DNA of 64,000 nt from Phoronis australis (Eukaryota; Animalia; Phoronida): contig NMRA01000131.1 in the NCBI GenBank assembly GCA_002633005.1, positions 173,798 to 237,797 on the forward strand, in the 5' to 3' direction. Numbering within the stretch: position 1 is the stretch's first letter; every line of letters starts with the position of its first letter. Shown here piece after piece: positions 8,401 to 63,734 of the stretch. The translations under genes were made by a program, and so were the position numbers. Under the pieces are notes generated by a model. It searched no databases. It was not told the DNA's origin and was given only the letters and a program-made list of their open reading frames with translations.

Positions 8401-9746
8401 GTAATTCCCGTGTGATGTTTTCTATTTTGACCTGGAGTGCAGCTACTTCACTTCTGGCCGACTCGGATGAATAGCGCTCAACACTCATCCAATTATCCTA
8501 CAATGCAATAAAGTAATTAATGTATATGCATTTAGAAGAATGAAAATGTTTCTAAGAAATATAACAATCAGTTAGATATAAAATGTATCTAAGTAAATAC
8601 GATGAATTTTAAATCTATTATAAAACCTAAGCAGATTTTACAAAATAGTTATAATTTTTTATTGAAATACAGGGTTTGTAAATAACATAAATATCATCAC
8701 AGTATAACAAAATTTATTTTGTCCATCATTCTCGTAATAATACAATAGAATAGACTGTAAGTGTAGCGTGTCAGTCTATCAATACCCTACTTTGTAACCA
8801 TGGCGGCTCAATACTGCATAAACAGACCTGTGAGCCTTTGTTTACACAGGACAGGCTGCCATTGGATTCAATTGACCTAAATCAATAAATAGTCATCACC
8901 GGTCAGCTATAACAACATGCAACATCAGTAGTGCCTGGGTTGATTAAATGGACACGAATTATTACTAATAATAATAAACTTCACATTTGTATCTAATGTG
9001 AATTGAAGCTTGTTTACTGATTCGTGCATACCTTCTGCAGTTCAAAACTCCTTGAAGTTGGGTTTCTTGAACTATTTCTTTCACTTTCAAGTGAGGAAAG
9101 TTGTGCAATTAGGTGGTCCTTCTTTTTCATTTCTTCTTTGAACTTTTGAAGTTGTTCTTGCATCTGAAAAGTAATTCACTCGATGAATGGACTGTCTAAA
9201 ATCCACACATCATAAACCCGATGCATAATGTATTTATAAACGGATGAAGTACGTACATCGCAGTGTACATGTACAATGAAGTAGCAATTAAATCATGGAA
9301 AAGTATAATTCAGTACCAATCATTTTAAGATACGTAATGCTTTAAAATGAGTACATCAATTCAAAATATCGCACAACTATAACGATCGGCAGATGTATAA
9401 TTATAACATTCAAAAGAGTAGTGCTGATATTGACTGGTCATTCGTCAATTAAACATTAGATAGCGCGTCGTGTCCGCGATTTAGGTAACATGTCGATACA
9501 TTAGGTAGAATTCACACTCGCACCAACCTCTACAACAGCTTTTCTGCTTTGTGAAGGTGATGATGACCGGTTATAGATTGACGGACTCTGTTCCCTTTCT
9601 CTATAAAGGGACGCCGGTGCAGTAGTGTTGAAGCGCACATGTAAATCATCATCCACAGATGAAACGCATTGCCTTGCCCTTCCATGTGATCGTCGTATGC
9701 TGGGTAGGCCGTCTATGTATTTGTCACCGTCGAGGTAGGAAGCCAT
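5480..9746 (-). CDS. CCDC170: Coiled-coil domain-containing protein 170 homolog, about 838 aa, 7 exons (9746-9528, 9163-9032, 8497-8148, 7949-7799, 7530-7345, 7148-6831, 6640-5480)
   Basis: GT-AG junctions with compatible phases and a long coiled coil. Motifs KASRETIMRLVSEV, KDLHLDLLRKKI and LLDLRQVISRMLGLDINTLAVPDFEIISRLEKLV match CCDC170/C6orf97. Confidence 0.88.
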
Positions 9747-22922: not shown

Positions 22923-23991
22923 ATGGTAATGTTTGAGTGCCACGATGTTCAGCCGGTTTACGGGATAATACCCTTTATGCGAGCATATGGAACATGAGGA
23001 CGACATTACGTTGGATAAATACACCACATCACACATTATACTAGTATTTGGCACTTTTGGAACCAAGGCATTACCCCCCTACACAATGTGATCATCGTTC
23101 ACAGGTAGTGTCGGTGCAAGCGAGTAGGCAGCTGCGATGTGCACTTCGACGTTCGTTTCAGTCGTCGACTTTGAAGCACGCGACAAAACCACTGGGCATT
23201 GTCCCGGATAATCCTACATACAAGAAGTTGCAGGAAAGACAAAGGTTGATGACGGTGGGTAAAGAAAGTTCTGTTAGTATATATCATTTATTGTACATAG
23301 TAGGCATTGCCTACACATACATTAATTTAAATCTCGATGTATATTCAGAGTATTTACACAGAGAGCAGTTCTTCACTGAAGTCTGAATATACAATGCTGT
23401 CTTGATTTTTGTGTTGGAATAACCTAACAAGAGAAGAGTTAACAATCACAAGCCCCGGTTGAAGATTTTTTAAGGTCTCCAAGAACAGGACATCGACATG
23501 GAATGAAGTTCATCCCAGATTGCATGTGCCGCATATTCTCTCACTTCTAGGAATACTCTTATATCTACATTTCTCCTAGTCTATACTAAGTGAGTGACCT
23601 GAACATTGAAACTGCAAGTATTCTTCTCGAATAAGCGCTTAAGCAATTCAAATGTTGCTCGCTGACAAGATCACGTTTAATAAGACTATAAAATTCATAT
23701 TTATTTGAGTTACCTATTTCCATAATCTGTTAAAGGTTGTCTCCTCTGTCGTGAAATCATGTTAATACATAAAAATACATTTAATTTGTGGAATATTTAT
23801 TGAACGCTGCGCCCCGGTTCTATTTATAGCGAGACGACGGACTGCTGGTGTGGCAGAAAGGTGGCGCAAGAGACATGATGTTCTACCGAGGTAGCCTAGC
23901 ACTAGTCGTGTTTGGACTGGTGATGGCCGTTAGAATGATATACTTGATGTCCGTCCCTCCTGAATGGAGAGGGGTGAAGACAGAGGACTAA
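22923..23991 (+). CDS. COX7A: Second cytochrome c oxidase subunit 7A paralog (short type); exons 23105-23254 and 23830-23991; first exon uncertain (candidate ATG|GTAATG at 22923-22925)
   Basis: VVSVQASRQLRCALRRSFQSSTLKHATKPLGIVPDNPTYKKLQERQRLMT/RDDGLLVWQKGGARDMMFYRGSLALVVFGLVMAVRMIYLMSVPPEWRGVKTED*. Arg/Ser-rich presequence-like N-terminus, same phase-0 intron as the upstream paralog, one TM helix. Confidence 0.82.
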
Positions 23992-35992: not shown

Positions 35993-38900
35993 ATGGCGGG
36001 GGACGGAAGGAGTAAGTAGTCCGAGCCTAACAAATTCAGTTATGCTTTCATCCAAACATTCTTTGATTTCAAACCGAAATCCTCATTTTCTGTTCCTAGC
36101 TCTGACGTGATCGTTGGAGTAGATATAAGGTGGGGAAGTATTTAAATACATGCTGTTTCGTTGATCGCGTAGATGGTAGACTTTGACCTGTCAGCAGGCT
36201 GAGCTGACGCAGTGTCAAGCTGTTAGCCTTGTTCCAGTACGGTAAAAGTGTCAAACATGGGTCCCTAGGTCCTTCTTTTTTCCTTATATAAACTCACATA
36301 TGTGGGTCGGTTTCAGCAGATAAACATGAGTTATAATTCAGAACAGTTAGAAATTAAGTACCTTTAGCCGAAACACAATTTCCTAATCCAGCCTCGCCAA
36401 AATCTGCTTTGTCTCAAATTGTAGAATCAGAAAGTTTCGCAAGAGTTTCCGTGTCTCAATTCTAGAGATTGTCCCGAATTGGAGAATTTTTTACTGTATG
36501 AGTGATTGTGTCTCAAGTCTGATTCTCCAACTGAGAAAAGGAGATGTTTTTACTTGTTTCGTGTCATAAATTTATTTGTGATTTACCTAAGTAGTTTTTA
36601 CAAAATGTAATTATTTGATTCTTGCCCATGTCTATCACTGGAAAATTATGATACCCATCCTTTTATAGAGTTTACATGAGAAACGTTGTCCTTAAGGAAC
36701 TTCCATGAAAAAGGTTGACTCTTGTGTATTTTTAGATTCAAAACACCACCCGGGTTAATTTCATTTTACCTAACCTTTTCATAGAGTAAATTGTTATATC
36801 ATATTGAGTTCTTTTCTAACCAAAGCTTTGAAAATTTAGTATTACTAACCTTGTGTAGAAAGTGGTGATGCACAATCTACCCTGGCTGGCTTCTGAGTGG
36901 CATGCTCACTGTCCAGTATACTTCTTCTATGAGTACCCCCAGCTCATGCCTCAAAGTTGTTAGAAACTTTCAGTGAGACTCTTACATACTAGTAAAGAGT
37001 CTACTTTGAGTTCATTCTTTAGCTTTAATAGTAATAAACTGGGGAAGTACAGCTTTATGCAATTGTTTACTAAGTTTTGTTCTTTGTATATTTTCAGCTC
37101 ATCCCTATGCAACATGTTTGGAATCCTTAAAACTTGACGACCAGGAATTTAGCTTTTATAACCTTGGGCGTCTTGGTGAAAAATACGGTAAAGTTCTGAA
37201 TAAGATTTTGTGAAGTTAAACTTTTTGGTGATTGTGCCTATGTATATTATAGCAAGTGACTATTTGGAAGAACTTGTTTATAGATTTTAGATGCTTGGGT
37301 GACTATTAAGCCATTTTAAGAATGATTTAGCTTGAAATATTTTTATAAAAATAATTGCAGGTGTTCTGATACATGTTGTACCAGACGTGCGCAGGCCACA
37401 CATGTGGGCCCATTGCACTGATCACCTGGAACCATTTTTACGCTTTATTAATATGTGGTTAAAACCGGGCTGAGGAGCTAGAGACCTGACTCAAGAGTTT
37501 AGCAGTGTGACCTGGTGGGACTCGAACCCACAACCTTGAGTAAACAAAGCAGGCACCTATCACACTAGGCCACAATGCCTCCTCTCTATTTTTTGATGGT
37601 CCGGTACTAGTTATCATCTATGTTATTTATATCATGGACATATGCTATAAAATTTGTCTCTGTAAAGCAAGGCCTTTTGATATTTAAGCACCCACACGTG
37701 TGAGTGCAATTGCAGTCATCTCTGTTTGGGTGTCTAGTGTCCACTGCTGTGTCACCAAAACCCAATAAGGGATCTTCATGAAAGTTGGCAGGTGTGTTCT
37801 CGTGAACTTTATGGCAGACAACACAAATGTGCCCCCTAGTGGCATTACATTTGCCTAGATATCTTTCGCTTGTATTTTCGGATGGGTTTGGTTTGACATT
37901 TTTTCCATTACGTAGTGGTCATTTTTGTGATGCTTTAAACACCCCTTGAAGCACATGTCAGTCACATTTCAGCACTCTGCTTTGCCCTTGTAATTTAATG
38001 TGCCCATGTTAATGTCACACACTAGTCTGAATATATAGTTACATGGCTGACTTACTATCTTTGATTACGTGTACTGTTACGTACATTATAGGTCTATGTA
38101 CATTGTAGATCTATGTACATTGTAGATCTGTGTGTATTGTATAATTATCTACTGTTATGTACATTGTAGATCTGTGTGTATTGTATAATTATCTACTGTT
38201 ATGTACATTGTAGATCTGTGTGTATTGTATAATTATCTACTGTTATGTACATTGTAGATCTGTGTGTATTGTATAATTATCTACTGTTATGTACATTGCT
38301 GATCCCTGTACATTGTAGATCTCTGCTCATTATAGAACCAAATACATTGCAGATCTATGTGAATTCATTGTATATCTACTGTTACATGAATGTTGTAGGC
38401 CTATGTGAATTGTAGTAGATCTTTGCACATTGCACAGTAGATCTGTGCTCATTGTTGATCTATGTCCTTTGTAGATCTATGCGCATTGTAGACATATGCA
38501 CATTGACAATAGATCTATGCACATTGTTGTTGTGCTCATTTTAGATCTGTGCACATTGTAGTTCTATGCATATTGTTGATCCCTTACAGCTAAAGAACAA
38601 TGACATCCTGTTATTGATCACGTGCACTGTTATATGCATTACAGATGCCCTGCCGTACTCGGTGCGCGTGCTTCTGGAGTCAGCTGTTCGAAGCTGTGAT
38701 AACTTTTCAGTGCTCACCAAAGACGTAGAGAACATTCTCAACTGGGCTGAGAACCAGGACAAGGTTGTAGAGATCCCTTTCAAACCAGCCAGAGTCATCC
38801 TCCAGGATTTAACGTATGTAGAACTCTACACATACTGGGCTTAGTGATCCTCTTTTCTGCTATTAAACAATTCATACATTTGCTTAAAATCTTTATTCCA

Positions 38901-41900
38901 AAATACAACTTACACTGGATAAGGAGAGTGGTGTTTGGATAAAAGCACTTGTCTGACTGTTTACCTCTTTGAAATAAATGGACACATTAAAATTCTTGGT
39001 AGTGACAACTTCTTTGGGAACTAACTTGTTGCTTAAGTTGTCCCTGCGTAATTCATCAGTTTGGCTGTTATTCCTACACTTTTCCTTGTTGGTCTATGTT
39101 AATACTCATTCAGTTTACGATTTATTTTTTTTATAAAAAATATCTGATCCTAACTTTAGCATTTAGTAAAATAATAAATAATTCATGTCGTAACTCATCA
39201 ACTTGTGCTGTTGTGCAAGCTTGTGCTCTAGAACTGTTGCAAAGCTCTGTCAATCACAATCAGACTCAAAAATCAATATTTCCTTCTTCAAAGGTTATCA
39301 TCCAGAAATCGTGAATCAGTAAATCAAAATGTTCTCATCTACAGATGCTTCCTTGCACAAGTCCTCATTTTTGCTCTTCTCTTTCTCCAGGGGTGTTCCG
39401 GCTGTTGTCGACTTTGCTGCCATGCGTGATGCTGTCCATAGACTTGGTGGGGATGAGTCCATCATCAACCCCATATGTCCAGCTGATCTCGTTATTGATC
39501 ACTCCGTTCAAGTGGATGTGGCTCGCAGGTAAACTGTATAGCTTTGAGTTGTAGTTTCTGGAGACGATTCTGGCATTCACATAAGGTACTTGTAATTATA
39601 TTGTGTTTCAGATATTATTGGTGATCAGCGGAGTGGTGATTTACTACCAATATGTGAACTTGGAACCAAGAACAGAGATGTTTTTGTTCACAATCGTTCA
39701 CACATCCAATTGTACCCAACATTTGATACTTTCAAAGACGGCACCAGATCCGCTTTAAAGTTACTGTTATAATTAAATCACTAATACCATGTTATCGGTT
39801 GCACATTGTTCAAAAGTGATTGAAAAGTCTTAAAGTTGGAGTCTGAACATTTTTTTTTTAAATTCTGGCTAGGTTATTGTTTAGTTATAAGTGTAATGCC
39901 ATTTAAGGGACAATCACTTCTAAAAATGACCCAATCCAGCAGTGTAGCCATGCTATTCAAATGATTCTCTGGCAAAGCCACAAACATCACCATCTTTGAA
40001 AACCATTGTTTTGGTTCGTGTTTTGGGCTGGAAACCTTAGTTTTGGCTCTGTACTATGTGAGTTAGCATCCCTGATTACACAAAGCGCAGTGGATCAAAT
40101 GCTATTCACCGATTGTTTCAAAGTGAAGATTCACCACATCTGACTTCATTTACAATAGTTGTAAGTTTGTGATTTCAACTTGACGTAATTAACATTGCAT
40201 GGGTTTGGAGGTACAAGATGCCTGCCTCCAGTATTTTTGCAGTGTTACGTTACATTTCAATCAGTCGTGAGCTGTTGTTTTCAGTCCAGGTCGTTTGTAT
40301 TCATGTGTGTTTTACAGCTTATTGAGTAGATACTCCCCAAACCCTGGTGGAGGTGGAAGGCCATGTCAGAAGTCAGGTCAAGGGTCAAAGCCAGGTCAAA
40401 GTTCACGACCAGCGACATGCAATACTTGTACAAATTTAGGGCTTCCCATCACAGATGCAATTTGTCCCTTTCATCGTGAGAAAACACAAGGGTTTGTATT
40501 TGTGTATTAGCCCGGTGTCGTTTTCCTTATATGTGAGCTCAGTTTGTAACCCTAACACTGACAACTCTGTTTTATAACTTGTATTATCCTAGACATGGTT
40601 GAAGACTGTTGAAGCTCTCTCTTGCTGAAGATGTGGCAGGGTTGCATGGTGTATGTAAAAAGTGTCACAGTTGCACACTCTCAAGCATTGAAATGTTCAG
40701 TTAAATGTTTTGGAAAGTCGGAAACATTTATTTAGCTTTGTGTGTTGTTTTTAAAATTTTTAGTTATTGCAAATTGTTGGTTAGTGATGCCTCAAAACTA
40801 GAATCCAATCCCTGAATTCAGACTAGAGCCGATATTGATCTTATTAAAATTGTTCGCACTGTCTTTTTAGAATATTTTGTATAGTTTTACTCTTAGTCAG
40901 TTATATTTTGTAGATATTTTCAACTTGTGTTTGTTTTTAATTTAGTACTAAATCTTGCAAATTTAACTGCTGCAGAAAATGTTCAATTGTGCTCTGGGAC
41001 ATTTTGCTCCCTTCTGGTTGTGTGAACAGTGGATGTCGACCCAGTTGTCTTACAGTTAGCTTTGTTCGCCATTAATCTAAGCACCCGCACCCAGCATGGT
41101 AATGGTTGACTTTCTTTTCTTAAAATCATCAATTTCTGCTGTACTTTTGTTGCTGTTGTGCGAATTTTTGACTTTGCACTAGATCCCTATAGTCAAGAAA
41201 TTGTTCATACAAATAGTCATCACTGTTAGAGCCACACGCAGCCTACGTTTATTTTATTGCCAATTTCTTTAGCACTCTTACAGTATTTCTTTCTTGGTAA
41301 CGCTGCATGCTTCCATAATTTTAACTAATCAGTACAAACGGTGTTAGGCTGTGTTTTGCCCTGTTGAGCTGGCTTGAAAATGAAAAACTTTTTACTCTCA
41401 TAAAGTTGATTTCGTGTTATTCCTTAGTGCGATAGGACTCTTTTCTATTCGCAACGAAAACATCAAAACCATCAGTAACTCTAGAAAACGCTTCGGAGCT
41501 GACCAACCCTAAAACTATGGGTGTGATACTGGTGCCCACAGGCATTCCCTGCACCTTGACTTGCTGGCTCATGGGAATATAATTTAAGATTGAACGAGTG
41601 TTGTATCATTTTGAACCCCAAAACATTTCAGTGAAGAATTCGACATTGACAGCTAAAATGGGCAAAATGCAGCTTTAATGTTATGTAGGACCTTGTTGTT
41701 GGCACGCCTGTGGATTTAGCCAATTATATACAGAACTTTATAATTTAATCACTTGAAAATAAATATTTTCTGAAATTATGTAGCCTAAAGTATTCTCGAC
41801 TTTACACCAATTTCTCATTAAATGAGTCACGTGACCAGGTCTTGTAAAATTTACCAAAACAAAGGTATAATTGTAGCAAAATAATGGTATTGATAACATC

Positions 41901-44900
41901 GCTAAATTTCATTAGATATAAATGTTCAAGAATAAATCATATAAACAATTTTAATTTTCATTTTATGCAACTTTTGATTTTTTTCGGAGAAATCATTAAA
42001 ATCCTGTTTTTGATAGCCTCATGCAAAAGTGCATTATTTTAAAAACGATTCCCAACACCATATTGGAGAACAGTACACAAACCAAAATATGCGAAAGTTT
42101 CATGGGAGTCCAGTCAGTCATTTTTGAGATATGACAGTTTTTGTAGGGTCGTACATAACCTTAGCTTATGTTTCTTCTTTGCTTCATTACTGTTTTTATA
42201 GAATTCACTTCTGGTTTTCATTTGAGGTTGGCACTATTTTGACTTGGCTTTGACCCGACTTGATCACGCCGTGGGATTTGTATTGTGCAGCATTTTCTGA
42301 TAATAGCCACTGCTCTTCTTTCAGGCAATCATTGTTGAATGTTTTATACAAACCTCAGCTTCAGTGCTTAATGTATTGTTAATGAGTGATTACTAAACTT
42401 AGATGACTGTTCTAATTAAACCATTCCTGCTGTGTGTTACTATGGAAACTAATCTAGTCAGCAAGGGCATGCAGCTTATATCATTCATTATTTTGCTTTC
42501 TGTTGCTGACCCTTTCTGTTTCAAAAATCATTCTCGAAATTAAAGAAAAGTTGGAGTGAGATTTTGTCCAAAGTGCATGACAAATCAAAATTGGATAGCA
42601 ATCCAAGCAAATCATTAGAACATTGAAATATCTCCAGAATTACATTTCATTACCTTATTTATACCTATTTTTCTCTCAGTGTGTTTTTAAACACACCCGT
42701 CAACAATATGAACAATTATGTATTTTTGAGCTGTGTGTTCTCATTTAGACTGCTCGCGTGCTTGTACAGTACGTTGAAGTTATTTTAGTTTTGTGAAATT
42801 TATCCATTTTACTTACAGTGTTAAGGGGCAGTAAACCCGTGCCTTTCATCGAAAAACAGTGTTTTATTTAGGTTACTACTGTAACAAAATCAACCTCATG
42901 TTGTTCTATACTGAAATTAGAAATGCTTTCCTAGAAAGTTTGACAGGTCGTTATTGCTCGAGACCAGACCTATTAATTTGCTTTTCGTGGTCCGTTAGTT
43001 TCACTTGGTAAAACAGTATGTCCGTCAAAGGAATACGAGACTTTCAAGTTGCAAATGAATACTGGTGACCTTTAGATTACGAGGAGACAATTTCACTTTA
43101 AGATTTGTTTAGAATGCACCATGTTGCACACGTAATATAACAGGACCTCTCCATAAAGTCAAATGTGTTTCCCTATGTCACCTGCAGCATAGAAAATGTA
43201 CCTCTTATTACTTTTATGGTTGGATATAACATGCCCTCAGTTTGAGAGCCACTTTTCTCCACTGAACAACGAGCATCAAACTGCTTCCCAAAATGCATGT
43301 TGCCTTTTGTTACAGCCAGTCGGCAATCAGCAGGCCTTAGAATTTTCCTCTTTTAAATGGATTTCCTCTTTTTTGGTTTCAATGTCTTCCCGTTTAATAA
43401 TTTCCAGTTTCTTCTTTTTTCTCTTTATCATTATTTTGACTTTATTTGTGCAAAACGTTTAACATATATTTTAGATAAATTTCACAACACGAAAACCATT
43501 TCTATCGCACAAGCCTATTTGTGTAACGATACATCACCTGGAAATTTTTCCTCTTTTTTATCATTGGTCATTCCAAGCTCTGAATTAGAGTCACCAGTCC
43601 CAGATGATCAGCCCCTATTGTTTCCTGAAAATCTCCCATTCCAGCTGATTTACAGTTCAAACAAAGGTTAGGAACCCGTTGATGTTGCTCTGGAGGTGCG
43701 TATACGCCTGACAAGGAAAGTTGATATTTGTTTAATCATCAGCAGAGCATGGTTTAAAGCTTTGTCATAAATTACTCATGAATTGCTTGCAACTCAGTTT
43801 CATTTTCTTGTTCACCTACTAACCACAATGACTCTTAATGATGATTTCTCGTCATTTTTTGTTCTCTCGAGTCCTTGTTGATTATCCATCTGTTTGATGT
43901 ACTTTTTCAGTGCTGACGCCTTACGAAAGAATGAGGAAATTGAGTTCGAAAGAAATAAAGAGCGATTTGTCTTTTTGAAGGTTTGTGCTTCTTAGTATTC
44001 TTAATTGAGTACACATGAGACACAAGTTGTTAACAGTGTTACAATCCATCACACAACTGTTAATAACACTGTTTAACAATACATCGTATAACAGATTATA
44101 ACACTGCTACAATACATCGTATAACAGATTATAACACTGCTACAATACATCATATAACTGTTTATAGCACTAATACAGTGCATCACAAAACTGTTGATAG
44201 CACTGTAGTATACACCACATAACTGTTGGTATTAGAGCTCAAGTTACTAGTCTTTCAATGTTCTACACATTCATTGATTAAGTAGGCAGACATTCTGGTT
44301 GTCCTCGGCATGAGAGACTATGTCTTTTTTGTGTTTGTATTAGTTTGTATTACTGTGTGATCTGTGAGACGAATACCTTCCTGAAAGATATATTGTACCA
44401 AGTGTAGACAAATTTGTAAACATAATACAAATATAAAACCAAAANCACTGCTACAATACATCGTATAACAGATTATAACACTGCTACAATACATCGTATA
44501 ACAGTTTATAACACTGCTACAATACATCGTATAACAGATTATAGCACTGCTACAATACATCGTATAACAGATTATAACACTGCTACAATACATCGTATAA
44601 CAGATTATAACACTGCTACAATACATCATATAACAGTTTATAGCACTAATACAGTGCATCACAAAACTGTTGATAGCACTGTAGTATACACCACATAACT
44701 GTTGGTATTAGAGCTCAAGTTACTAGTCTTTCAATGTTCTACACATTCATTGATTAAGTAGGCAGACATTCTGGTTGTCCTCGGCATGAGAGACTATGTC
44801 TTTTTTGTGTTTGTATTAGTTTGTATTACTGTGTGATCTGTGAGACGAATACCTTCCTGAAAGATATATTGTACCAAATGTAGACAAATTTGTAAACATA

Positions 44901-47900
44901 ATACGAATATAAAACCAAAATAGATGTGGCGTCCTGTGAATTTATTTAGTGAACAATCAAAAGGAGACTGTCGTCAGTTTACAGATTCTTCAGGTCTACT
45001 CTTGTGCTACCTTAATTGTATTGTGTCATATTGTAACATGGACTGGTGGTCTAGTTTACTGAAAGAAACTATTAACTATTAACTGTGGATGACACTGTTA
45101 CAAAACATCACATTATTGTTGGCAACACTGTTATAATACATCACATCAGCTTTCATACAATAAAACCCAATAGGGGGAGCATGACTTGCCATATCAGAAC
45201 TGATAGTGTGAGCTTATGGAAGATGCTCAGACAGAAGAAAATTACAGTTAAAAATTACGTCTTTAGAGTTAAATGTACGCAAAACTGTGACGATGTCTAC
45301 ATCAGAAAACTAATTTCTTAGTGAAATTGTATGTCTTCAACTAATAAACACCCGTACATTTCAGTGGGGTGCCAAGGCACTGCAGAACATGCTGATTGTC
45401 CCACCTGGCTCAGGTATTGTTCACCAGGTAAACCTTGAACACCTGGCTCGTGTCGTCTTCAATAAGGATCAAGTACTCTACCCAGACAGCTTGGTTGGTA
45501 CAGACTCGCACACCACCATGATCAATGGGCTTGGTGTTGTTGGTTGGGGTAAGTTGGACCAGCCTCTGGCTTCACTTCTGTGTTGGATACATGAATGTTT
45601 TGCACGACATTTTGAACCATATTCCTCTGAAAGTTTCCAATTAGTAAATGAAGTAGCCTGAACATTCCAGCTGTTCATCTGTCAACTTGTGTTCATTACT
45701 CTACAGGGCTTAAAATTTTCTACTTTAATAGGATTTCCTCTTTTGTGGTTTCAATTTCCTCTTATTTGATTTCCAATTTCTTCTTTTTTGTCTCTTTTCA
45801 TTATTTTGGCTTCATTGGTGCAAAAAAGACTTATTTCAATTAAACTTTAGAACACAAAAACTATTTTTATCACAAAAGCCTATTATTTGTGGAATGATAC
45901 GTCACATGATAAATTTTCCTTTTTGTCATTGATCCCTCCAAGTCCTGATTACAGTTTGTAGACATGTTACCACATGGATACTCAATGTTATGGCAAATCA
46001 ATGACACGGTTAGTTAAATTGACTGAGAACTAATGGTACATGGTGGCTTTGAATGTGTCCTTGTCTGATGGTACTCTTGTCCACTTGGTCTTCAGGAGCA
46101 TGCCTCTAATTACGGTCACTTGTTGGAACAGTTTTTGATAAAATGCGCAATGTCCAGACCGAACCTATGTACACTAGGTGTGATTTTATTACTAGCAACA
46201 GGACAATTGGGCATAGTCACATGTTCAGCAAAACACACATCCACGATTGAACTTAAAAACTCATAATATGAACTTTACATTTGGTAGTCCCATTCTGTGT
46301 ACTCATTGTGTGAGTGTGTTGGACTAAGTAACTCGTGTGAACTTTACTATCACTAGTCGCTGTCTCCGTACTAATTCTGTATGTGCATTATGCAGGTGTA
46401 GGAGGCATTGAGGCTGAGGCAGTCATGCTAGGTCAGTCCATCAGTATGGTGCTACCCAAGGTGGTCGGATACAAGATTACAGGTGTGATTCACCAACTGG
46501 CCACCTCTACTGATGTGGTGCTTACCATCACCAAGGTAACTAACTGTGAACATCTGGGTTTTGTTGATGTGTAATATTGATAAAATCAAGTCTGTTGCAT
46601 TCATTTGGCAATGTGTTGTTCTTATAAGCTCAGCTGATCATGTAACACGAGTCTTGCCCAGCTGAATAACAGGATTATTCCCTTCATATGTTTCTTTCAA
46701 ATTTGTGTTTAAATACAGTGTCATTATCAAGGACTGGATGGATGTCGTAGTTTGCCTGTATTGTGCCCACAGCTGGTTAGATCCGAAAGAATATAAATTT
46801 AATTCAGCCTTCAGTTTTGTCACACCATATATGTCTGCCCACAGTTTCAGTGGTAGTGGAATGCTATGGTGAACAGTGTTGATTTGTGCAGAGTGTCAAA
46901 ATGTCCATTATTTAAAGTTATTGTAATAGATCAAGCTCTCTAATTGAGTTACTGTTGGAAACAGAAATAAAAAGGTAATGGGTCTTGGCTATCTTTCTTT
47001 GGACTCCAAGAAATATACATTGTGAGAAGTCCCGTATTCAGAATACAACTTTGAAGGGTATTGTAGTCAGATGTTAGATAAAAGTGAACTGAACGTGGAA
47101 GCTGAGAAGCCATGTTTATTCACCATTACACGAGACAGGAACAGGAAACACAGAATCATGGGTAACTCATGAAATTGGGTTACAGTCCAGGGGAGATAGA
47201 TGACCCACTAACTCATAACATTGGCGATAGGTGGCGCCAGTGACAGCCACTTAACAGTTCACAACAAAGGGATGTTGAATAAAACAGCTCTTCTGTCCTT
47301 TGTGCACACGGTTGTAGTAATTAGATTGGAACCTGTCCTAAGTGAATGTATTTGAGTTATAAATGCATGTTACAAAATTTTCAAGTTCTTCCGAATGTGG
47401 TAGTGGACCAAGCCATTTTGAAACTGTAAATAAGGTCCAGCAAGTCTGTTGAATTGATATGCCCCATCAAAACATAATCATCTCTGGTGGCAGGAAAACA
47501 TCAAAATCCTACTTACATGTTTTGGGCAAAATGGCCAGAGATTGGTCAGTAAGGCTACTGCTTGAACTTACATGTGGTGTTACACACAAGATTTACTGTT
47601 GCTAACAGACATGTTGCACCGCTGTACTTGCTAATGTCTTTTATGTTCCTTCCCTTCAGCACCTGAGACAGATTGGTGTGGTTGGCAAGTTTGTTGAGTT
47701 CTACGGTCCAGGAGTTGGTCAGCTGTCCATCGCTGACCGCGCCACTATCTCCAACATGTGTCCAGAGTATGGTGCTACTGTCGGCTTCTTTGCTGTTGAT
47801 GACATGAGTATTAACTATTTGAAGCAAACGGGTGAGTTGGAGCTGTGCAGTGATTGCCTCTTTGAAGGCATAGACTGGTTGAGGCAATTGTATGACTTTC

Positions 47901-50900
47901 ATATTCATGGTTGTTGTGTTACAAATGATCTTGTCTTCTCTCAGACTGTTATTGGTTCTCAATTGGCACAGCATGGGTAAACTGTCCTTATTGTCCAAAG
48001 TTTCGGTCTTTAAAACAATTATTAAGTATTTCAAGTTGATTACGTGTCATCGAAGGCAGTTGTCCATGATCGCAATTGTTTATTTGCAGGTCGTGACGAA
48101 GCAAAAGTGAAAATGACTGAAGCATACTTAAAGGCCAATAAGATGTTCCGTGATTACAATGATGAGTCACAGGACCCAGTCTTCTCTGAGGTGGGTAATA
48201 ATTATTTACTTGTTATTTGACCCATCCAGTCATAGGACTTCACTCTATAAACTGGAATCGTCTTTGCAGCGGTGCACTTCTGATTATAAGCTCTCTTCCA
48301 TGTTCATTTAGACATGGAAATTAGCAAATCACAAGACCACTTCCGTCAATGTTGTTATTCACTCCCATCTGACCTTAAATGTTAGAAACAGCGTTTGTGA
48401 TTAGTGGGTTGCACACTTCTTTAGACTTTGGCTATCTCCTGCAAATATTATAGTGTTGTTGTTAAAATGGCCTAGTGCAGTATTGAGATTTTTTTGAAGA
48501 TATAGTTCTAGAGGTAGAAATTGTCTGCTTTTTGCACTCGTTACTTTGAGAAATGGCTAAGTTTCATGAAGAAGGGATCGTTGATGTAAATCAGCAACTT
48601 GTGCATGGCTACGGACCAATTATTCAGTGATTGCCTGGTCCTCAAAATCAGTGACCATTATATTCGACTAGTGCTGAGAAATGCTCACTAAATCATAAAT
48701 GCTGGTAAATTTAAACGCTGGGTTTTGGAAGGTACGAATGATGTCGACATTCTGCTTAGTCTCAGAGTAACAACAGTGAAAGTGGACCCATGATTGTTCC
48801 AGATACTGTTCAGCACTGCCGATACATTGATCTGTGTGCTGTTGGTGACGATTGTATTCGTCGTCATATGTTTTCCATCTTGTGTCATTTTTATCATAGT
48901 TGACTATTTTTGAAATATTGGCTCTAGATCTTACTTTGTTAAAAATAAAATTAGTCATGTGTCAAGTTGTTTAAAAGGTAAGAATTGGAACAAGTGCCTA
49001 GTGGTTAACCCCCAGTGTAAGCATACTTCTTTTTAAGAGGCTGTCTCTCTGTTAAAGTCTGCAGTTTTCTGCAAATCTGCTATGCAGAATACTACAAAGC
49101 AGTTTTGGTTGTTCACAGGTCTCTGTTCCTTTAAAATTGAATGGAAACCTTGCTCTAAAATGCATTCTTAACTGAATGTGGTCTATGGGTGTTTGTACCA
49201 TAATTTTGGCTGTCTATTAATTTTGTTGTTATTTTCCCTTCAGGTGGTCACTCTTGACCTGGCCACAGTTGTACCGTGTTGCTCAGGACCCAAGAGACCC
49301 CATGACAAGGTGGTTGTCTCGGACATGAAGAGTGACTTTGAACAGTGCCTTAACAACAAGGTTGGATTCAAGGTGGGTGTTTTATACACAGTAGACAGAG
49401 TTGAAGAATATAAAGTACTGTCTTTACAGTTATTCAGTCATTTGTGATAATCTGGCTTAGGAAAATTGTATACCATGTTTTGCTTTGTTTTTTAATATTT
49501 TATTAAGGTTCAGCTATTTTGTGTTGATATAGTCTATATCAATACAAAATATAGATACAAGTCCATTTTTCTCCAGTTTTATACAATAGCCTTTTTCCTA
49601 AATAACAGCGACATTACGCCTAGATGTTAGATGTCGATGGCGTTGTTGGCGGCCTTGGTGCTGCGCTTTTGTGGGAGAGAGGCTAATACTGTGAGATATC
49701 CCAGCTTTAATTCTTTTTGTCGTCATTGTCACTGTTTCGCTGTGGGATAGTTGAGCAATTCACACATAAATGCGAATGAAGAAAAATTTGTTTCGTGCCA
49801 ATCAACTCGGCTGTCTTGCCCACCAAAATTATACAGTTAGACGAACTTACCTTAAGTGAAGGATGACTGTAATTTTATGTATCCCCAGAATTCCCCCAGA
49901 GTGCTAACATGNAGATACAAGTCCATTTTTCTCCAGTTTTATACAATAGCCTTTTTCCTAAATAACAGCGACATTACGCCTAGATGTTAGATGTCGATGG
50001 CGTTGTTGGCGGCCTTGGTGCTGCGCTTTTGTGGGAGAGAGGCTAATACTGTGAGATATCCCAGCTTTAATTCTTTTTGTCGTCATTGTCACTGTTTCGC
50101 TGTGGGATAGTTGAGCAATTCACACATAAATGCGAATGAAGAAAAATTTGTTTCGTGCCAATCAACTCGGCTGTCTTGCCCACCAAAATTAAAGTTGGGT
50201 CAAGTAAGACACTTTTGTACCCTTAAAATGCTAAACAGTTGTATATCGAATTATTCAGAAAGCAAAAACTGTAACTTAAACTCTGTGTGTTCGTCTCCTG
50301 TGACCTGCCATAATTATCACTTTAACTGATGTATGTATTTTTTATTCAATTTAATATTCTTATCCTTGTTGTCACTTTGTAGGGCTTTGCTATTCCTGCT
50401 GATAAACAGGACACTGTCGTCCCATTTGTCCATGACAACCAGGAGTATACCCTCAGCCATGGGTCTGTGGTCATCGCCGCGGTAACCAGTTGTACTAACA
50501 CTAGTAACCCATCAGTCATGCTTGGTGCAGGTGAGTGTTAGATAGGATTACTGGAGCCTTCTAATGTTGGAAGATGGCTCCCAGTTTCCTGCAAAAAACA
50601 AAGTCTGCAGGAAATAAGACCAAGAGTTTTACCAAATGAATGCCATCTTCAGTCTCTATTCCCTGCCTGAGCTGGTCTCCTGTCTCTTTTTTGATAGTTC
50701 TGCTTTTCTTTTATAAATTCACAATTATTAGAAGGGGAAATGACCACGTATTTTGTTTGCTTGAAAACTGTTTACGAAGAAAATGTTTTTTCTTCTAAGC
50801 TTTGACTTATTCACTGATAGTTATGTAATCACTGAATTAGATACTTTTGAGTCTTTGCTGTAGTTCAGATCATTAGCCTTGTTAATACTTCGTTCTCTGA

Positions 50901-53900
50901 TTCTTTGGTTTGATTAGAAATAAGGTTGTGTCAAAATAAAGTTTGTTCTCGTTGAAAAATGTCAAAATTTTTGGTTAAAAATGTTTATTTAATATTCAGA
51001 TTATTTTGTCTGGTTTCCTTCTGTTTTTGCCGCAACATCAACAACTCTGGTCCAATTTTCAGAAATTTGTAATTTTTATCAAATACACCTTCATTGACAT
51101 TATTCGCCTTTCTTTCCTAGGACTGATGGCCAAGAAGGCTGTTGAGGCCGGCTTGATGGTGAAACCATACATCAAGACTAGCCTGTCTCCGGGCAGTGGA
51201 GTGGTCACCTCATACCTGCAGGAGAGTGGGGTTATGCCCTTCTTGGAGAAACTAGGGTAGGTACTCCCTGAGTGAGATGTTGGCAGGATTGCGTGTTTCT
51301 TTTATTGGTCAAGAATTCAATGGAGGTGAAATCACAGTAACATGCGTACAGGTGATACCTGTCTGAGCATACCTGTGAAGCTTAGCAGAGATGTCTGCTT
51401 GTAAAACGTTTGATATTTTTGGAGCAACATTGTTTAGTTTGTTACTGTTTCAGCTAACCTTATATGATGAGGCATAACTGCAAAACTTGCATGGTCACTC
51501 ACTCCTTGACCATGTGTTATTATGTCAAAGTACATTATCTACTATTCTTTCTCAACAGGTTCGATGTGGTTGGTTATGGCTGCATGACCTGTATTGGCAA
51601 CAGTGGACCCCTAGCTGAAGGGGTGGGGGAGGCTATTGAGAAGGTGGGTTGTTGGCCAGGGACTGGCTGGATAGTGTTAACTATGCTCTATCAATCTCTT
51701 TTACATGACTTGTCTAGTTGAATATGTACCCTATTAGAGTAGTTCTCATTGTTTTTGATTGAGTATGCATGCTGAAAAAGCTCGCAGAATAGTTGCATCT
51801 TATTCTTCAAGGTGGCGACCCTCTGTTTCAGTTTTGTACACATTCTGTTGTCAGTTCTCATTTCACAACAAAGCGTTTTTATTACTGTTGTCAACGATCT
51901 TCCAAATTTAGAATTTTCGTTAGAACATAATATGGCTATGATGATTACATTGTCAATTATTACTGTGCATGTCAGACTTTGGTTGACATGAAGCTCTGGT
52001 AATATTAATGTGTTTTGCCATATGAAGCCTGTTGTTCATGTTTAGTCATGTGATGGTCATGTGGTGATCATGTTAATGGTCATGTGTTAATCATATACAC
52101 TACAGTTTCATTATGTAATTCCATCTCACTCTAGGGTGATCTAGTGACCTGTGGCGTACTTTCTGGCAACCGCAACTTTGAAGGTCGCATCCACCCACTG
52201 ACCCGGGCCAACTATCTGGCTTCACCACCACTAGTCATTGCATATGCACTCGCTGGGACAGTGCGCATTGATTTCGAGAAGGACCCAATTGGTAAGGGGG
52301 TGATTATGAACTGACTTAACTTGTGTAAAATATTTTGCTCCATTAATTCATAGAGTATATCAGGAAACTAATTTCTTGAAGAGCAAATCGTTATAGAAAT
52401 GCTTCAACATGGGAAAACCTATTCTTGTTTTTTTTTCTTTTTGCAGTAGAGGGCACCACATTGTAGTGAATTACATTGGAGAATCTAGTATTAATACCTA
52501 TAGGGCCACTGTGTTTGGGGGCTAAGGTTTCATGGTTGTCTAATTGTGGTATTTCCTTCTTCAAGGCTGATGAGTTTCAGTAGTTCTCTTGTTGGTAATT
52601 ACTCTTCAGCATAACTTGTATGGTAAAATTTGCCAGTTTTGGTTGCTAAGGTAATTTTCAGTGTAGAACTAAAACTGGCCTCCAGATGGCTCTAATCACC
52701 ATCACCAAACCCACTCATCCGCCAACAAACCAAACGTGTTTAAAATTATTACTTGTGACTGATGGGTTCAGAAATGGATGGTGGCAAGGTTTGTATCTGT
52801 AACAAATCACACATGTACATTACAGTTTACTTCGAAATTACATACGTTCAATCCATAGTTGGTACAGAAAAAAGGAAATACACCCTTCTCTGAAGCCTGT
52901 CGCTAGCAAAGTGCCTTACACATACAATCGCACCCGCATGCCCATGTAACACAGGTGCACTGAGACGCAACAAAGATATTAGCAATAAGAATATGTAAAT
53001 AATTATTACTAAATAAGCATAACAATAAGGTTAGCGTACAGTTACTTAAGTTCGGTCACAGTATATCATTACTTGCTAATGAATGATTTTCCATCAAGAT
53101 GACCGTCTGTGTGTGTAATTGCAGGTACTGGTTCTGATGGATCACCTGTCTACCTGCGTGATATCTGGCCCAGTCGTGAAGAGGTGCAGTCTATTGAGAA
53201 AGAGTTTGTTGTACCGGCTATGTTCAAGCAGGTCTACTCCAAGCTTGAGGTGGGTGTGGCCTGCTTTGTCAATCATTATTTTGTCTCAGTTTCTTCTTTC
53301 TATTGATGTTCAACATCATCTTTGAAATTGTGTTCTCGTATTTTGTGACCTCTGTGTTACTGTCAGTCATATATTTTAAGTATTTTTATCTTGTGATGTT
53401 TCTGTAGCTTGTCCCTCTTCCTCAAAACTGTAATTCTACGGCAAAGAACTTGAATTGTTGTCTAAGCTTCTGAATAGCTTTGAAATCCTGAAAATTCATA
53501 CCTGAAGTAATAAGTTTATCTGTAATATTCTCAATAGATGGTGTGTGCTGTGATGAATATGTTTTTTTCTAGAATAGGTGCTATTTTTGTTATTCACATA
53601 TCATGTTTTACTTACCTAGCTTTGTCTGCAACCGAGCAAATGTCGTGATATAGTGTTGCATTGTTCAAAAGGAATCTTGTTTCTGTTGTACATACAGCAT
53701 CCACTCTGTTTGTCGTAGTGTTGATGTTAACACTTTCAAACCCCAAGTGTTATGCATCTTTTACAGAAGGGCAACGAGAGATGGAATAACCTTGAGGCAC
53801 CTGATGGTAACCTGTACCCCTGGGACAACAAGTCTACTTATATCAAGTCTCCTCCTTTCTTCGAGACTATGGTATGCTGTGCATCCAGGCGATTATATTT

Positions 53901-56900
53901 TATTCACATCTTAGAGTTTCCTGTTAGAATTGATAGCATGTGTCAATATTTTTCCTTGATGTAAAATTGGCATTGATTGAGACTATTATTTTGGATTAAA
54001 TGCTCGTAACAATTAGGTTAAGTTGGTTAATATGTTTTCCAATCATTTTATATGGCACAATTATGCTTCAGACTGTTGCTCTTGCTGCTGTCCTCCTTTG
54101 CTATGTGACGCTGGGCATTAGTTGTATATCTGGCAGTGTTTTGCACTGAGAGTTGTACAACTCAACATGAACATGGTGTTTTAAATGTTGGTGTTCCCGT
54201 CAGTTTAATGTTAGTTAGAGAAATGGGAATAGTAAATGCTTCAGGTCATGGATTTTCCAAGTTTGGTTTTTCTGTGTGCTGTTTAGACTTTACCAACACT
54301 CTGCCAGGGCTGTTCTTTCATTTTTCATTGTTTCAGTTCTGTGAAGTATATTGTATGGGCCCTTATTCACCCAAGGGGGAAGGTGCCTGTGCCATCTGAG
54401 AGGGAAATTTTTTGGTTGAAGGGAAAATTTTCCTACCGCGGCCACCACCAATTCTACCTTCCTGGTAGCCAATTCTCATCAGCAATGCCAAAGCCAATGT
54501 TTTGCAGAAGTGGTTCTAACCTTGAGGGGATTTTTTAATCATTGGAGGAGAATTTTTGGATCCGATGAGAGAAATTGTACATGTTTTTTACATATTTTTC
54601 ATCGAAGAATGGGGCTGACATGCGACCCCAAAACCCGAGACATCGAGGGCTCTGATTTTACAATGTTGTCCTTTCAGACCAAAGAACTACCAAAGGTGGA
54701 GAATATTGAAAATGCATATGTGTTGCTCAACCTGGGTGACTCAGTGACCACTGATCACATCTCCCCTGCTGGAAGCATTGCTCGCAACAGTCCGGCGGCT
54801 CGTTACCTGGCTAGCAATGGGTGAGAAATGCACATACCTACGCACGCGCATGCACACATGCACGAATACAGCTATTGTTCAATGTAATACTCCGGGAAGG
54901 TTTCACTTATGTTGACTTAATGCAAGTGAGATTCCATTCACATTGACTGGTTAGAAGTATGTGGCATTATCACAGTATGAAAACTAATTAGTGACAAGCC
55001 TTAAGACAAATCCCTGGGTTTAACTTAACTTCCATGTATAAGGAAATGAAATAGCTAGTTCCAAGTCATGTTTACATGTTGTTTTAAATACAGTGTGTTT
55101 AATAATTGCCAATTTTTCATGGAAGTGGATTAATACAAAATAGTTGCGCTTTCTTAAAGTGGTATTACTGTAAAAACGGTATCTAGTCAATTTGTATTTT
55201 GGTAAAATTGAGAGAAAAGTAGTGTAGTAGTCATTAGAAGAGTTAAAGTGCTGATTTGATGTGCTACACTTAACGCTCTTAGTTTACGATACACTAGCTA
55301 CAGCAGTTGAACTCTGTCAGTGTTAATATTCTGTGTGGTGATCTGGTGCCAGTATAGTCAATATGTTACTTTGGGTATTATTCAAACTTCGCTATTAGTT
55401 AATGACACTCTGATCCTTCTGGGTAGAAGGTTAAGTGAAATGATTTGACAAGCAGAACCAGTGGTGGTTGTTGACAGTATCTTTGGACAGTAACTTGGTT
55501 CAAATACCAAGCATCCATAGCAGATGAATGTGACCTACTCGGCTACAGACTTCTGCAACCTCTCTCTGGAGGAGCCTAATGACTGTATTTACGTATAGAG
55601 GGTTCTCATTATGAGTATTAAATCTGGTGTTTCATGCAATTGGCCCGAACTATGTGGCCTGTGCACATTCGATGCTATTCAATGCAATGTTTTTATTAAT
55701 GACAGCACAGTTACTTAGTTTGTTATCTTTCTTTGTCATCATCTGACTTGTGTTTTTCTTGCAGCTTGACACCTCGTGAATTCAACTCCTACGGTTCTCG
55801 TCGTGGCAACGACGCAATAATGGCCAGAGGGACATTTGCTAACATTCGACTGGTCAACAAGTTTATTGGCAAGGCTGGTCCTAAGACTATCCATGTGCCT
55901 TCAGGAGAACAGGTTGGCTGAAGTTCTCAAAGTATTGTTTGTTATAATTTGTTGACAATACATGCTGTAACTTTTTATTTCGTTGACTTGTGTGTTCTGA
56001 AGTGTGTGTGTGTGATTTATGTACTATTCTAGTATGATGTTGTTGATGCTATACCTATTCTGAAGTGTGTGTATTCTGTTCTAGAAGGATGGTGTTGATG
56101 CCACGCCTGTGCTGAAGTGTGTGTATTCTGTTCTAGAAAGACGGTGTTGATGGTATACCTGTTCTGAAGTGGTATTGTGTGTCATATTGCAGATGGACAT
56201 ATTTGATGCAGCTGTTCGTTACAAGAGTGAGAAGCATCAAGTAATTGTACTTGCTGGGAAGGAGTACGGTGCTGGCTCTTCACGTGATTGGGCAGCTAAA
56301 GGACCGTGGATGCAGGTCAGTTTGCTCACACCCCAAGGGGTTTGATGCATTTCTAACTATACTTTATTTAGTCAGATGTTTCTTGATCTCGGTAATTTCT
56401 TTCTAGTCTGTGGTCAGTTCTTTCTAGATTTTCACCATTTCTTGTTAAACTGCCCAGTTCTTTCAAGGATTTGTCCAGTTCTCACTGGATTTAGGTCTGT
56501 TCTTCTGGACTTACTTGGTTACCAGTTGGCTTGACCAGCTCCCCCAAGACAGACAGACAGACAGACACACACACACCACCATTCGCTCTGCTTTTCTGCA
56601 CTGCAAGGTACCTACATACCCAACATTAAAGTATTGAACTTAATATGTGAACACCCCAAGCTTACAACAAGTGTGGCCATTGTATTGGGATTTTTTTTTT
56701 TTTTGATGGCAAGTTTTGATTTTTGTGTTAGTCCAAAGAGATCATCCAGTTTCTGATAAAGTTTATTAACACTTTTAGATTTTTTGCCGCACCACCGCAA
56801 GCTACCTCGCCTAACTCACCACCCTCAAGACCATGTCAAAAGTATCTGTCTATTTTGATGCCATCATTTTGACGTCATATAAATTCTGAGACACTGTTAT

Positions 56901-59900
56901 CGTTGCATATTTTGGACTGTTTCATGTCGCTTCATTCTATGAAAGCCTTTACTAAACCTTAACATTGGATAAGATTTGTTAAGGAATTTTGACTGAACAG
57001 GTTTTTAAGGTTTTTTCAAAGCTTTGTGGATATTCAAATTATAAGCCAGTACATGTTTCATAATAGAAGGCACAAATAACCTTGTGTTTTTGTCTTTCAC
57101 ATTCAACGTTTTTACCTACTATGAGACAATTTGAAAAAAAGAAAATGTCTGTATAGTGGGACTACTAATGGCCACAATGTTGGCATCCAAATCCCATTCT
57201 CAAAGTGTTCCCTGCTTCTGCTTAAAGGGGATTTGCCATAGTTATGCATTTGGGGACACATTTATTTTATCATGAACTGTTATTTTCATTTGGATTTTTT
57301 TATCAACGGTGCTTTGCAACAATATTTGATCAAGTGTACAATGAAGTTGGGAGTGTTATTCATCAGTATGTGTTAGATATGGTATTGATTTATAGGAAGA
57401 CTAATACATGGAATAACTGAAGCGTCGGAAGCATTGTCATATTGCTTCAACAAATGGCCGACAAAGTCAGCCATGGGAAGGGTACAGGAGGGCTAGTCCC
57501 TCCCTCAGAAACTTTTGAGAATTCAAATATTATTTGGTGCATTCTATAGGCCTCAAAATGCCTTTTTGACTTGCTTTATGGAAAATATTGGACTGGGTCA
57601 GGCATTCGTGAATAAGAATAATGGGGTCTGTTATGAAGTAAAAATAACAAACTTACATGCAAGCCATTGGAAATTTAGCACTAAAGGAGAAAAGATGAAA
57701 ACTTATGGAGACTGACGAGTTAAGCAAGGCCACTCGTTAGGAATGGTGATTCTCATTGTTGGTATTATTTTGTCAAACCGTCTCAAACTTCTTGTCTAAC
57801 GATACCTGTACACTAATTTTCAAGGTCACTATAAGAAGAGCAAAGTCTGAGTTGGGGAAACTGCTGTCCACGTATTTTCTCAAGAAGGAGCTTTCAATTT
57901 GGTCCGTGTTTTGTAACGAGTTTCTGATGGGGCAACTAGAGGCGCCTCTCGGTTTTACCTATGTTGACCTCATTTTCAAGGCTATAGTGAGATGATGCAG
58001 TGTATGAAAGCTCAGACAATATTCTCAAAATAGTGATCATTTTCAGATATGTTGGAAATGAAGTGTTACAATGATATTCATCTGGCTTATCTGTACACAA
58101 ATTATTCATTACCCCATAAAATTATGGCATTAAAATTGCGTGCATCCGTAGGTGGCGGAGGCAATTGGGTGTGTGCCAAATACTTGTTTTAGTTTCAAAT
58201 TGCAAATTGTTGGACTTGGCATGTGGGCCTGCTTTAACTGTTACACATACAGATGAGTGGTCATTAGTATTGTGTACCTTACCTCTTATGTTTAGTTCTG
58301 TGCTTATTGTTATCTTTTGTCTTACAGGGGATAAAGGCAGTGATAGCGGAGAGTTACGAGCGCATCCATCGCAGTAACCTGGTCGGTATGGGTATTATAC
58401 CCTTCCAGTACCAACCTGGGCAAACAGCAGATACACTGGCTCTGACTGGCAAAGAACAGTATACTATTGAGATACCACCAGATGTCACTACAGGACAACT
58501 AGTCGATGTCAAGGTGACTAGCCTTTTGTTGATGACTTTTAAATTACCGTAACTTCTAACTACTTGTAGTCTATATTTTGCTAGTTGTCCAATTCTCTGT
58601 TTTGCCGACAAACATGAAGTTCAACACAATATGGCTGTAAATGGGAAGACAGTGGTGCAAAGGATATTTTAGTGATTTTGGTTCTGTTTTACACCATTAA
58701 TTCATTGTCCTTTAATGTCTTGTAAAGTACACGTTGCTGTTCCTGATGGTTGGTGTTCACCTCACATCTGTTGATAACCCCACCTCGTGCATGAATCACA
58801 CTTGGGATGGCCCACTTCAAGAGAGAATAACGGAGCGTTACTTTGAGGGTTAATGAGACTAATAAAGAATTATAATTTTTTAATAACTTTTTGCCATCTG
58901 ATCATACTCTTTGTTTGTTAATAGGTTAAAACGGTGTTAGGTATTCTTTTAAAGCCTTCCTGACATGGATTTTTGTTATTCCATGTGTATTGGGCTGTCC
59001 AGATAGTCCTTTGGCTACCAATGCTTTAGCAACACAAGAAAACACAATTTCTGTTTTGAAAATCCCTTGCATTTATAGCCTTGACCTTGAATAGTCCTCG
59101 ACGATTTTAATTCTAACTTTCAAAGGCCCTCGGATTTCAGCTTTTAGCTTCGAAAATATTTGCTTTTTTAATTTTTTGTTGTTGCTAAAACATATTTTTT
59201 AAAAAATCATGAAAGCCAATTGTTGCCCTGACTCACGTGAGGGAAAGGTGTCTGTGTCTTCTGAGAGGGCAATTTTTTGGTTGAGAGCAAAATTCTTCCC
59301 AGCCCCCTCTGCCATTGTCACTGCCAGTTCCATTCCCTAGCCATTCTCCTTGATTAGCAATACCTCAAGTAGACAAAACTAATGTTTCGTAGAAGTGATT
59401 TTAACCAAGAGTACTTTTTAAATTGTGGGAAGGGAATTTGTGGGCATGATTAGGGGATTTTTTGCATGATTTTTAAATATTTTTTCTTGGGGAATGGGAT
59501 CGATACTTTGCCCCAAAATCAAGAAGTTGGAGGCCTTAAAGACAGCGTCCAGCGGCTAAAACACCTTTTTGACACTAGAAAGGTATGTATTGTTCATAAA
59601 AAAATTTGTTTTTGCTTCTTACATACCACGGAAAGTAATTAATTGCGACACAAATTACACCGCTCATAATTCGTAGCCCCTTCGAGTGCCCCAGAAAAAA
59701 TCTCAACCAATCCGTGTAAAGTGGTTCATATGACATCATCGTGTCCACGAATTTACTCGTGAGCCACACTGCGTAACAGCCGAGTGCCATTTCTTGGACG
59801 TTCTGCACTCGTCGATCTCTGGGCTAAAATGCCTCTTTGCGTGGTGTGCGGGTGTAGCAATGTCAGTGGCAATGGGATACATTTGCACAACTTCCCCACC

Positions 59901-63481: not shown

Positions 63482-63734
63482 TTGGGCTTGAAATTTTCCT
63501 CATTTAACAGGATTTCCTCTTTTTTGGTTTCGATTTCCTTTTATTTGATTTCCAGTTTCCTCTTTTTTCATCTCTTTTTATCATTATTTTGACTTTATTG
63601 GTATAAAAACGTTTATTTCAGTTATATTTTACAACACAGAAAATATTCCTATGGCACAAGCCCGTTTATTTGTGGAAGGATACCATCGCCTGGAAAAATT
63701 TCCTCTTTTTTGTCAGTGGTCCTTCCAAGCCCAG
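63482..63734. mobile_element. MITE family of about 250 bp, copy 3
   Basis: TTGGGCTTG...CCAAGCCCAG with flanks GAGTCA/AAGTCA (6-bp TSD, one mismatch). Confidence 0.75.

Follow-up and report, generated by a model that had tools for sequence, protein, structure and literature searches.

An alternatively spliced exon of a phoronid aconitase/IRP gene, very probably homologous to the insert of iron regulatory protein 2

The window analysed here, a 64,000-nt stretch of contig NMRA01000131.1 from the Phoronis australis assembly GCA_002633005.1, contains a cytosolic aconitase/iron regulatory protein (IRP) gene in which the fifth coding exon is optional (Table 1). We built the gene model from two mapped homologues together with joints seen in RNA reads, and the exons account for the whole length of these two full-length homologues. 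Reads back every junction from exon 3 on, exon 2 is backed by loose read ends, and exon 1 (35993-36011) comes from sequence only. Exon 5 is bounded by an AG acceptor that ends at 40317 and by a GT donor at 40492, with a further donor following 39528 and a further acceptor preceding 43911, and all three possible joins are in phase 2. It is open through its 58 codons, which include PNPGGG, CNTC, and CPFH, and its splice sites showed no unusual weakness on inspection.

Table 1. Coordinates of the aconitase/IRP gene and of its optional exon (window positions)
Feature	Position	Strand	Description
Cytosolic aconitase/IRP gene	35993..62719	+	22 coding exons; 953 aa with exon 5, 895 aa without
Exon 4	39391..39528	+	Bears the D-H-S active-site segment; donor joins 40318 or 43911
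Cassette exon 5 of 22	40318..40491	+	174 nt, phase 2-2, 58 aa; almost certainly a homologue of the 73-aa insert of IRP2
PNPGGG	40337..40354	+	Near insert start
CxxC (CNTC)	40418..40429	+	11 residues before CPFH
CPFH	40463..40474	+	Equivalent of human IRP2 C201-H204
Exon 6	43911..43980	+	Acceptor used from 40491 or 39528

Splicing of this exon was followed in three raw-read runs of one study, chosen by species label, and in one contig-only run (8% of sampled words). The inclusion junctions 39528>40318 and 40491>43911 were covered by 78, 65, and 101 reads and by 126, 87, and 138 reads in the three raw runs, respectively, and the skip junction 39528>43911 by 90, 52, and 30 reads. All three junctions, each GT..AG and on a single strand, were present in every raw run (3/3), and the contig-only run held the inclusion form alone; for the rest of the gene, the best-supported joints listed formed single GT..AG paths. 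The fraction of inclusion was 0.53, 0.59, and 0.80, skipped reads made up 20-47% of the total, and distinct read starts numbered 45, 37, and 50 for inclusion versus 48, 31, and 21 for skipping. Inclusion differed among the samples (p about 5e-7 on read counts at the shared donor, the reads not being independent). Regulation of exon 5 splicing is only suggested by these data, because the samples come with no stated tissue or treatment and the one with high inclusion is also of another genotype, with run X4 heterozygous where X2 and X3 are not, including one site within exon 5. The sequence-only reading of this DNA had proposed a real 174-nt phase 2-2 exon whose flanking exons can also be joined in frame; splice sites and junction reads agree with it, and the read count that it put forward as a check found the exon both included and skipped in all three raw runs. 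At 40476, a G>A change inside exon 5 replaces Arg with His just after CPFH; it is fixed in the X2 and X3 reads and present in 88 of 177 reads in X4, the run with the highest inclusion.

The body of the encoded protein resembles IRP1. Exon 4 has matches in both human (E 5e-18) and rabbit IRP1 and also in human IRP2; the nearest annelid homologue carries the Pfam Aconitase and Aconitase_C domains, and the best structural match of its AlphaFold model is 2B3X. Residues were mapped via amphioxus and numbered as in the human protein. On this basis, the window protein retains all three [4Fe-4S] cysteines (C437, C503, and C506), which it shares with vertebrate IRP1/ACO1 (2B3X, 3SN2/3SNP), and is identical at 21 of the 22 active-site positions compared. 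Of 18 RNA-contact positions compared, among which the label R260 is wrong, 15 are kept. Differences from vertebrate IRP1 include Asn at R699, among the four cleft arginines named in papers on clams, Ser at N685, Lys at R732, and Ala at Ser138. R536, I507, and S778 are all retained, whereas human IRP2 has K at R536 and N at S778, and shark IRP2 has K at R536 and V at I507, so the loss of active-site residues that marks IRP2 was not found. Judged by these residues, the gene product is of the IRP1 type and not of the IRP2 type. The short form is also insert-free like vertebrate IRP1, but the human and rabbit IRP1 chains have no insert at all, while the long form accounts for about half or more of the transcripts of the window gene. 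The two products had been described in the sequence-only reading as possibly IRP1-like and IRP2-like isoforms. The second description overstates the long form, because the latter keeps an IRP1-type active site and because the insert and its cysteines are dispensable for IRP2 to be degraded in an iron-dependent manner, a process that proceeds via FBXL5 (PMC2267205, PMC3048577).

A search with the 58-aa sequence of exon 5 alone gave nothing at E<=1, which we regard as a limit of sensitivity because a profile made from 13 insert regions and their short flanking stretches gave 58 matches among 7986 candidates; these added annelid, chiton, and millipede sequences and two shark IRP2 clusters. When profiles were made from only deuterostome-invertebrate or only chelicerate inserts, the exon 5 ORF came first (E 1.1e-10 and 1e-5, respectively) when the window was scanned as 3011 six-frame segments, and a chance ORF is thus ruled out. 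Rfam gave no match within window positions 34000-64000. A PDB search with exon 5 alone returned one match, which was judged to be due to chance.

Comparable inserts are distributed widely across animals. A search with exon 4, which is blind to the insert, was evaluated through the best 120 of 2002 matches, and all nine complete inserts that it brought up have both [N/D]PGG and CPFH (the tenth belongs to a truncated model). Long and short database proteins, mostly automatic RefSeq or GenBank models, form pairs that differ solely by the insert block (a junction residue being allowed) in 28 of 30 taxa. Such clean pairs were present in 19 of 20 taxa (five oysters, two clams, three stony corals, and, among deuterostomes, four amphioxus entries, four starfish, and a hemichordate), the exception being the soft coral Xenia, and in nine of ten further species (a tick, two scorpions, three spiders, an abalone, a snail, and an urchin); the comparisons of Ixodes ricinus and of one Larinioides pair failed from differences elsewhere in the protein. 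In the Ornithodoros cluster, all four proteins are long forms. Of the matches listed, those from Trichoplax (2/2), the two full-length ones from Xenia, those of ciliate type, and a single firefly fragment were free of the insert, and the profile matches listed bore no name of an insect, crustacean, nematode, tunicate, or sponge. A search of representatives at 50% identity yielded 15 short ORFs and no further named lineage, and the ESM Atlas gave only leads below 0.9.

From these searches we tabulated 55 inserts, one per genus, comprising 51 from invertebrates (the window included) and four from shark IRP2, with lengths of 27-440 aa. C-P-x-H stands six residues from the insert end in 55/55, shark IRP2 included, [N/D]PGG occurs in 49 of the 51 invertebrate genera and in 4/4 shark IRP2, and CxxC lies within 22 residues of CPFH in 29 of the 51 invertebrate genera and is absent from the other 22, these motif counts being inflated because many rows came via a profile that itself holds the motifs. 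No CxxC is present in the tabulated chelicerates, corals, or shark IRP2, and several gastropods are likewise without it and keep CPxH. Motifs of the PNPGGG and CPFH kind, for which a search in other invertebrates had been advised from the sequence alone, were found there, in this case in database protein models. In sea slugs, scorpions, and spiders (P0212, P0213, P0214, P0196, and P0203), the insert has grown to 110-440 aa with CPFH still six residues from the end, and the inserts of Aplysia and Elysia are without NPGG.

Reviews describe the 73-aa insert as unique to IRP2 and its function as unclear (PMC4056636, PMC2854138, and PMC2267205), and in vertebrates a separate exon encodes it (PMC3048577). 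The insert of vertebrate IRP2/IREB2 (6VCD) occupies the same site, is likewise encoded by an exon of its own, and has PNPGGG close to its start and CPFH close to its end, but the exon is optional in the window gene. The vertebrate facts on which the sequence-only reading drew are in keeping with these sources, namely the separate exon (PMC3048577), C201 as a proposed haem ligand (PMC2267205), and the C201/H204 numbering, which we read from the human chain (6VCD). The alignment of the amphioxus long form with human IRP2 continues across the insert, where PNPGGG and CPFH line up, and the alignments of human and rabbit IRP1 to amphioxus break at the insert site. For the middle region of the IRP2 insert (S157, C168, C174, and C178), no alignment with the invertebrate inserts was obtained, and in its place many of the latter have CxxC. 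A flank-free profile of 45 bilaterian invertebrate inserts gave two shark IRP2 inserts scores of 35.7 and 34.6 bits; the best shuffled versions came to 14.7 and 17.5 bits, respectively, and 0 of 2000 shuffles reached either score. Coral inserts reached about 14 bits with the bilaterian profile (0 and 2 of 2000 shuffles reaching the scores); since these scores are weak, the coral link rests mainly on position and motif offsets. In the reverse direction, the window insert scored 14.3 bits with a shark-only profile (0/2000 shuffles) and 8.2 bits with a coral-only profile (2/2000 shuffles). We are close to certain, from these comparisons, that exon 5 is homologous to the IRP2 insert. The pairs from coral to amphioxus, the fixed C-P-x-H, and the profile score of the shark inserts further indicate that the supposedly IRP2-specific insert was likely already an optional exon before cnidarians and bilaterians split. 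The earlier proposal of an IRP2-type insert that predates the vertebrate duplication is supported in that the profile score, the motif offsets, and the database pairs speak for homology to the insert of IRP2 and for an age far beyond that of vertebrates.

Could the inserts of invertebrates and of IRP2 have arisen independently at an insertion-tolerant loop, or could the skipping be noise? The unalignable middle of the insert would fit separate origins, as would the shark-only and coral-only profiles, which left exon 5 outside the top three in the six-frame scan of the window. Against this stand the identical site, the two motifs at fixed offsets, and the significant cross-clade profile score, while the share of skipped reads and the recurrence of the pair in 28 taxa speak against noise; we consider both explanations very improbable and largely refuted. 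The history of the duplication was approached with trees made after removal of the inserts, in which IRP1 was present only as fragments of 160-165 aa. A quick 44-row tree placed the window with annelids and molluscs (96) and joined a frog ACO1 fragment to shark IRP2 (81); in a careful 23-row tree, the window was unplaced and vertebrate IRP1 and IRP2 formed a clade (86/74). The window gene is probably lophotrochozoan, and a vertebrate-specific IRP1/IRP2 duplication is favoured. An older duplication would instead imply that invertebrates lost IRP2 and that vertebrate IRP1 later lost an optional exon inherited by both lineages. It would agree with a published NJ tree that groups invertebrate IRPs with vertebrate IRP1 (PMC8947174), with the higher score of amphioxus against human IRP1 (1454 bits) than against IRP2 (1282 bits), and with the weak support of the vertebrate clade in both of our trees. 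However, it requires many independent losses, a long IRP2 branch would account for the NJ grouping, and frog ACO1 and shark IRP2 are united in both trees, and an older duplication therefore seems improbable to us.

With the duplication placed within vertebrates, the distribution of the exon can be read as a division of splice forms. The insert is carried by all five members of the shark IRP2 clusters and by human IRP2 (6VCD) and is missing from human and rabbit IRP1 and from both frog ACO1 fragments; the alternative exon is present in unduplicated outgroups, as seen in the window reads and the database pairs. Vertebrate ACO1 is suggested to retain an intron at the insert site, since 16 of 18 genomic-style ORFs with the vertebrate-type DFNR motif end right after exon 4. 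After the vertebrate duplication, the exon probably disappeared from IRP1 and became fixed in IRP2, which would have partitioned the splice forms between the paralogues. Splice forms are partitioned between duplicates in a comparable way in teleost mitf and in troponin I of Ciona versus vertebrates. In these cases, too, a single ancestral gene had an alternative exon and each of its two descendants makes one form; here, the partition would involve the two central iron-regulatory proteins and an exon kept since cnidarians and bilaterians split, and the timing of the duplication is less firm. Shark IRP2 (P0215) keeps the three cluster cysteines and S778-S779-R780 and, among the 22 active-site positions compared, differs from IRP1 at R536K, I507V, and R699N; it may be closer to an active aconitase than human IRP2, with its Asn at S778.

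As to what the exon does, we lean towards an IRP1-type gene whose optional exon 5, the likely ancestor of the IRP2 insert, adds a flexible and putatively haem- or metal-binding CPFH loop beside the iron-sulfur cleft. About 11 residues would separate the loop from the D125-H126-S127 active-site segment ahead of it, and directly behind it would come the position of Ser138, whose phosphorylation destabilises the cluster of IRP1 (PMC3048577). Ligand binding or oxidation at its Cys/His pair would shift the long form between the aconitase and RNA-binding states, splicing would set the share of the IRP pool that carries this second input, and the upstream CxxC, as a lineage-specific addition, could complete a Cys3His metal site. 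The fixed ends and freely varying middle of the insert are what one would look for in a flexible loop that has two anchored motifs. For an annelid long form and the minimal coral long form, AlphaFold models, each made from 50 sequences and for the long form only, gave pLDDT <50 over the insert (residues 132-194 and 132-167, respectively), and hence no folded metal site or docking is predicted. In IRP1, the segment around residues 126-146 may be disordered in the RNA-bound structure, a point that carries no weight here. The Cys-Pro dipeptide lies within the predicted flexible segment, as is characteristic of haem regulatory motifs. Haem binding at IRP2 C201 has been proposed and is disputed, and haem was reported to be bound only to cleaved IRP2 (PMC2267205). 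We find it plausible, but stop just short of endorsing, that a haem- or metal-responsive Cys/His loop, in a proportion set by splicing, biases the switch between the aconitase state and the RNA-binding state. More tentative is a two-tier iron sensor from one gene predating the coral/bilaterian split, in which an active aconitase/IRP gains a haem- or metal-binding Cys/His loop through splicing, inclusion tracks tissue or iron/oxygen, vertebrate IRP1 and IRP2 are frozen splice forms, and CPFH (C201/H204) is the ancestral functional core.

The main rival to a sensor loop accepts that the exon is ancient and regulated and makes it a docking, cleavage, or localisation loop, whose conserved ends would bind a partner or the aconitase surface. 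The insert is required for the tumour-promoting effect of IRP2 with known IRE targets unchanged (PMC2854138, PMC10340119), is cleaved in tissues, and confers cleavage when transplanted to IRP1 (PMC11084215), all of which would suit such a loop. So would its predicted disorder, but the insert is not known to have a partner, and near-invariance falls on a Cys and a His that stand three apart within a Cys-Pro motif. Cys and His in this setting are typical metal or haem ligands. We therefore rank docking or cleavage as a serious but unlikely account. A purely structural role, in which a small Cys3His metal knuckle (zinc most likely) stabilises the loop without any sensing, draws on the spacing C-x2-C-x(8-15)-C-x2-H, found in 29 of the 51 invertebrate genera with the window gene among them; yet corals, chelicerates, several gastropods, and shark IRP2 have CPxH without CxxC, Pfam gave no match for the insert, and there is no confident fold, which makes the knuckle quite doubtful.

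Molluscan orthologues have been studied in both forms, apparently. The ark clam SbIRP-1 is a 942-aa long form, and its authors noted the Ser138-Gly189 segment as absent from vertebrate IRP1, reported that the recombinant protein, from a cDNA with the insert, binds the IRE, and stated that IRP2 is missing (PMC8947174). In the available main text of that paper, "splic" and "isoform" do not occur and the segment is not tied to IRP2. The Cys443 numbering of the razor clam cAH fits a short form, and the text searched of that paper (PMC12896564) contains no splicing, isoform, or IRP2 link for the segment. The insert is also unmentioned in the available parts of reports on sponges (PMC7034838), a chiton (PMC7850002), and a tick (PMC4821805). 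In the text of the open-access literature searched, we found no paper in which the insert is described as ancestral or as subject to alternative splicing. One starfish long form bears the name IRP2 in UniRef, and with this name and the isoform pairs in public annotation, a specialist could have noticed the relationship. As an ancient optional exon, the insert would change the account of how IRP1 and IRP2 originated. It would also be reduced to two short motifs at fixed positions, which points to C201/H204 and not to C168/C174/C178 or S157. Natural pairs with and without the insert on an aconitase-type scaffold, including the 27-residue coral minimum, permit direct tests of function, and studies of invertebrate IRPs may have used different isoforms unknowingly, as with the long form in the ark clam and the apparently short form in the razor clam.

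Several other features were observed in the window. A cytochrome c oxidase subunit 7a-like gene has an exon at 15573-15758 on the plus strand (Pfam COX7a, E 6e-8), and ORFs near 14355-14606 and 23045-23383 are similar to it by eye and have no Pfam match. At about 5600-8500, a coiled-coil gene on the minus strand would be in keeping with Ser/Leu-rich frames on the plus strand, which are typical of the antisense of such a gene. Intronic tandem arrays occupy 44031-44681 and 38081-38581, with periods of 33 bp and 17/44 bp. A dispersed repeat, found in introns and downstream of the gene at about 43250-43590, 45720-45940, and 63500-63580, draws many divergent RNA reads on both strands and is probably a mobile element.
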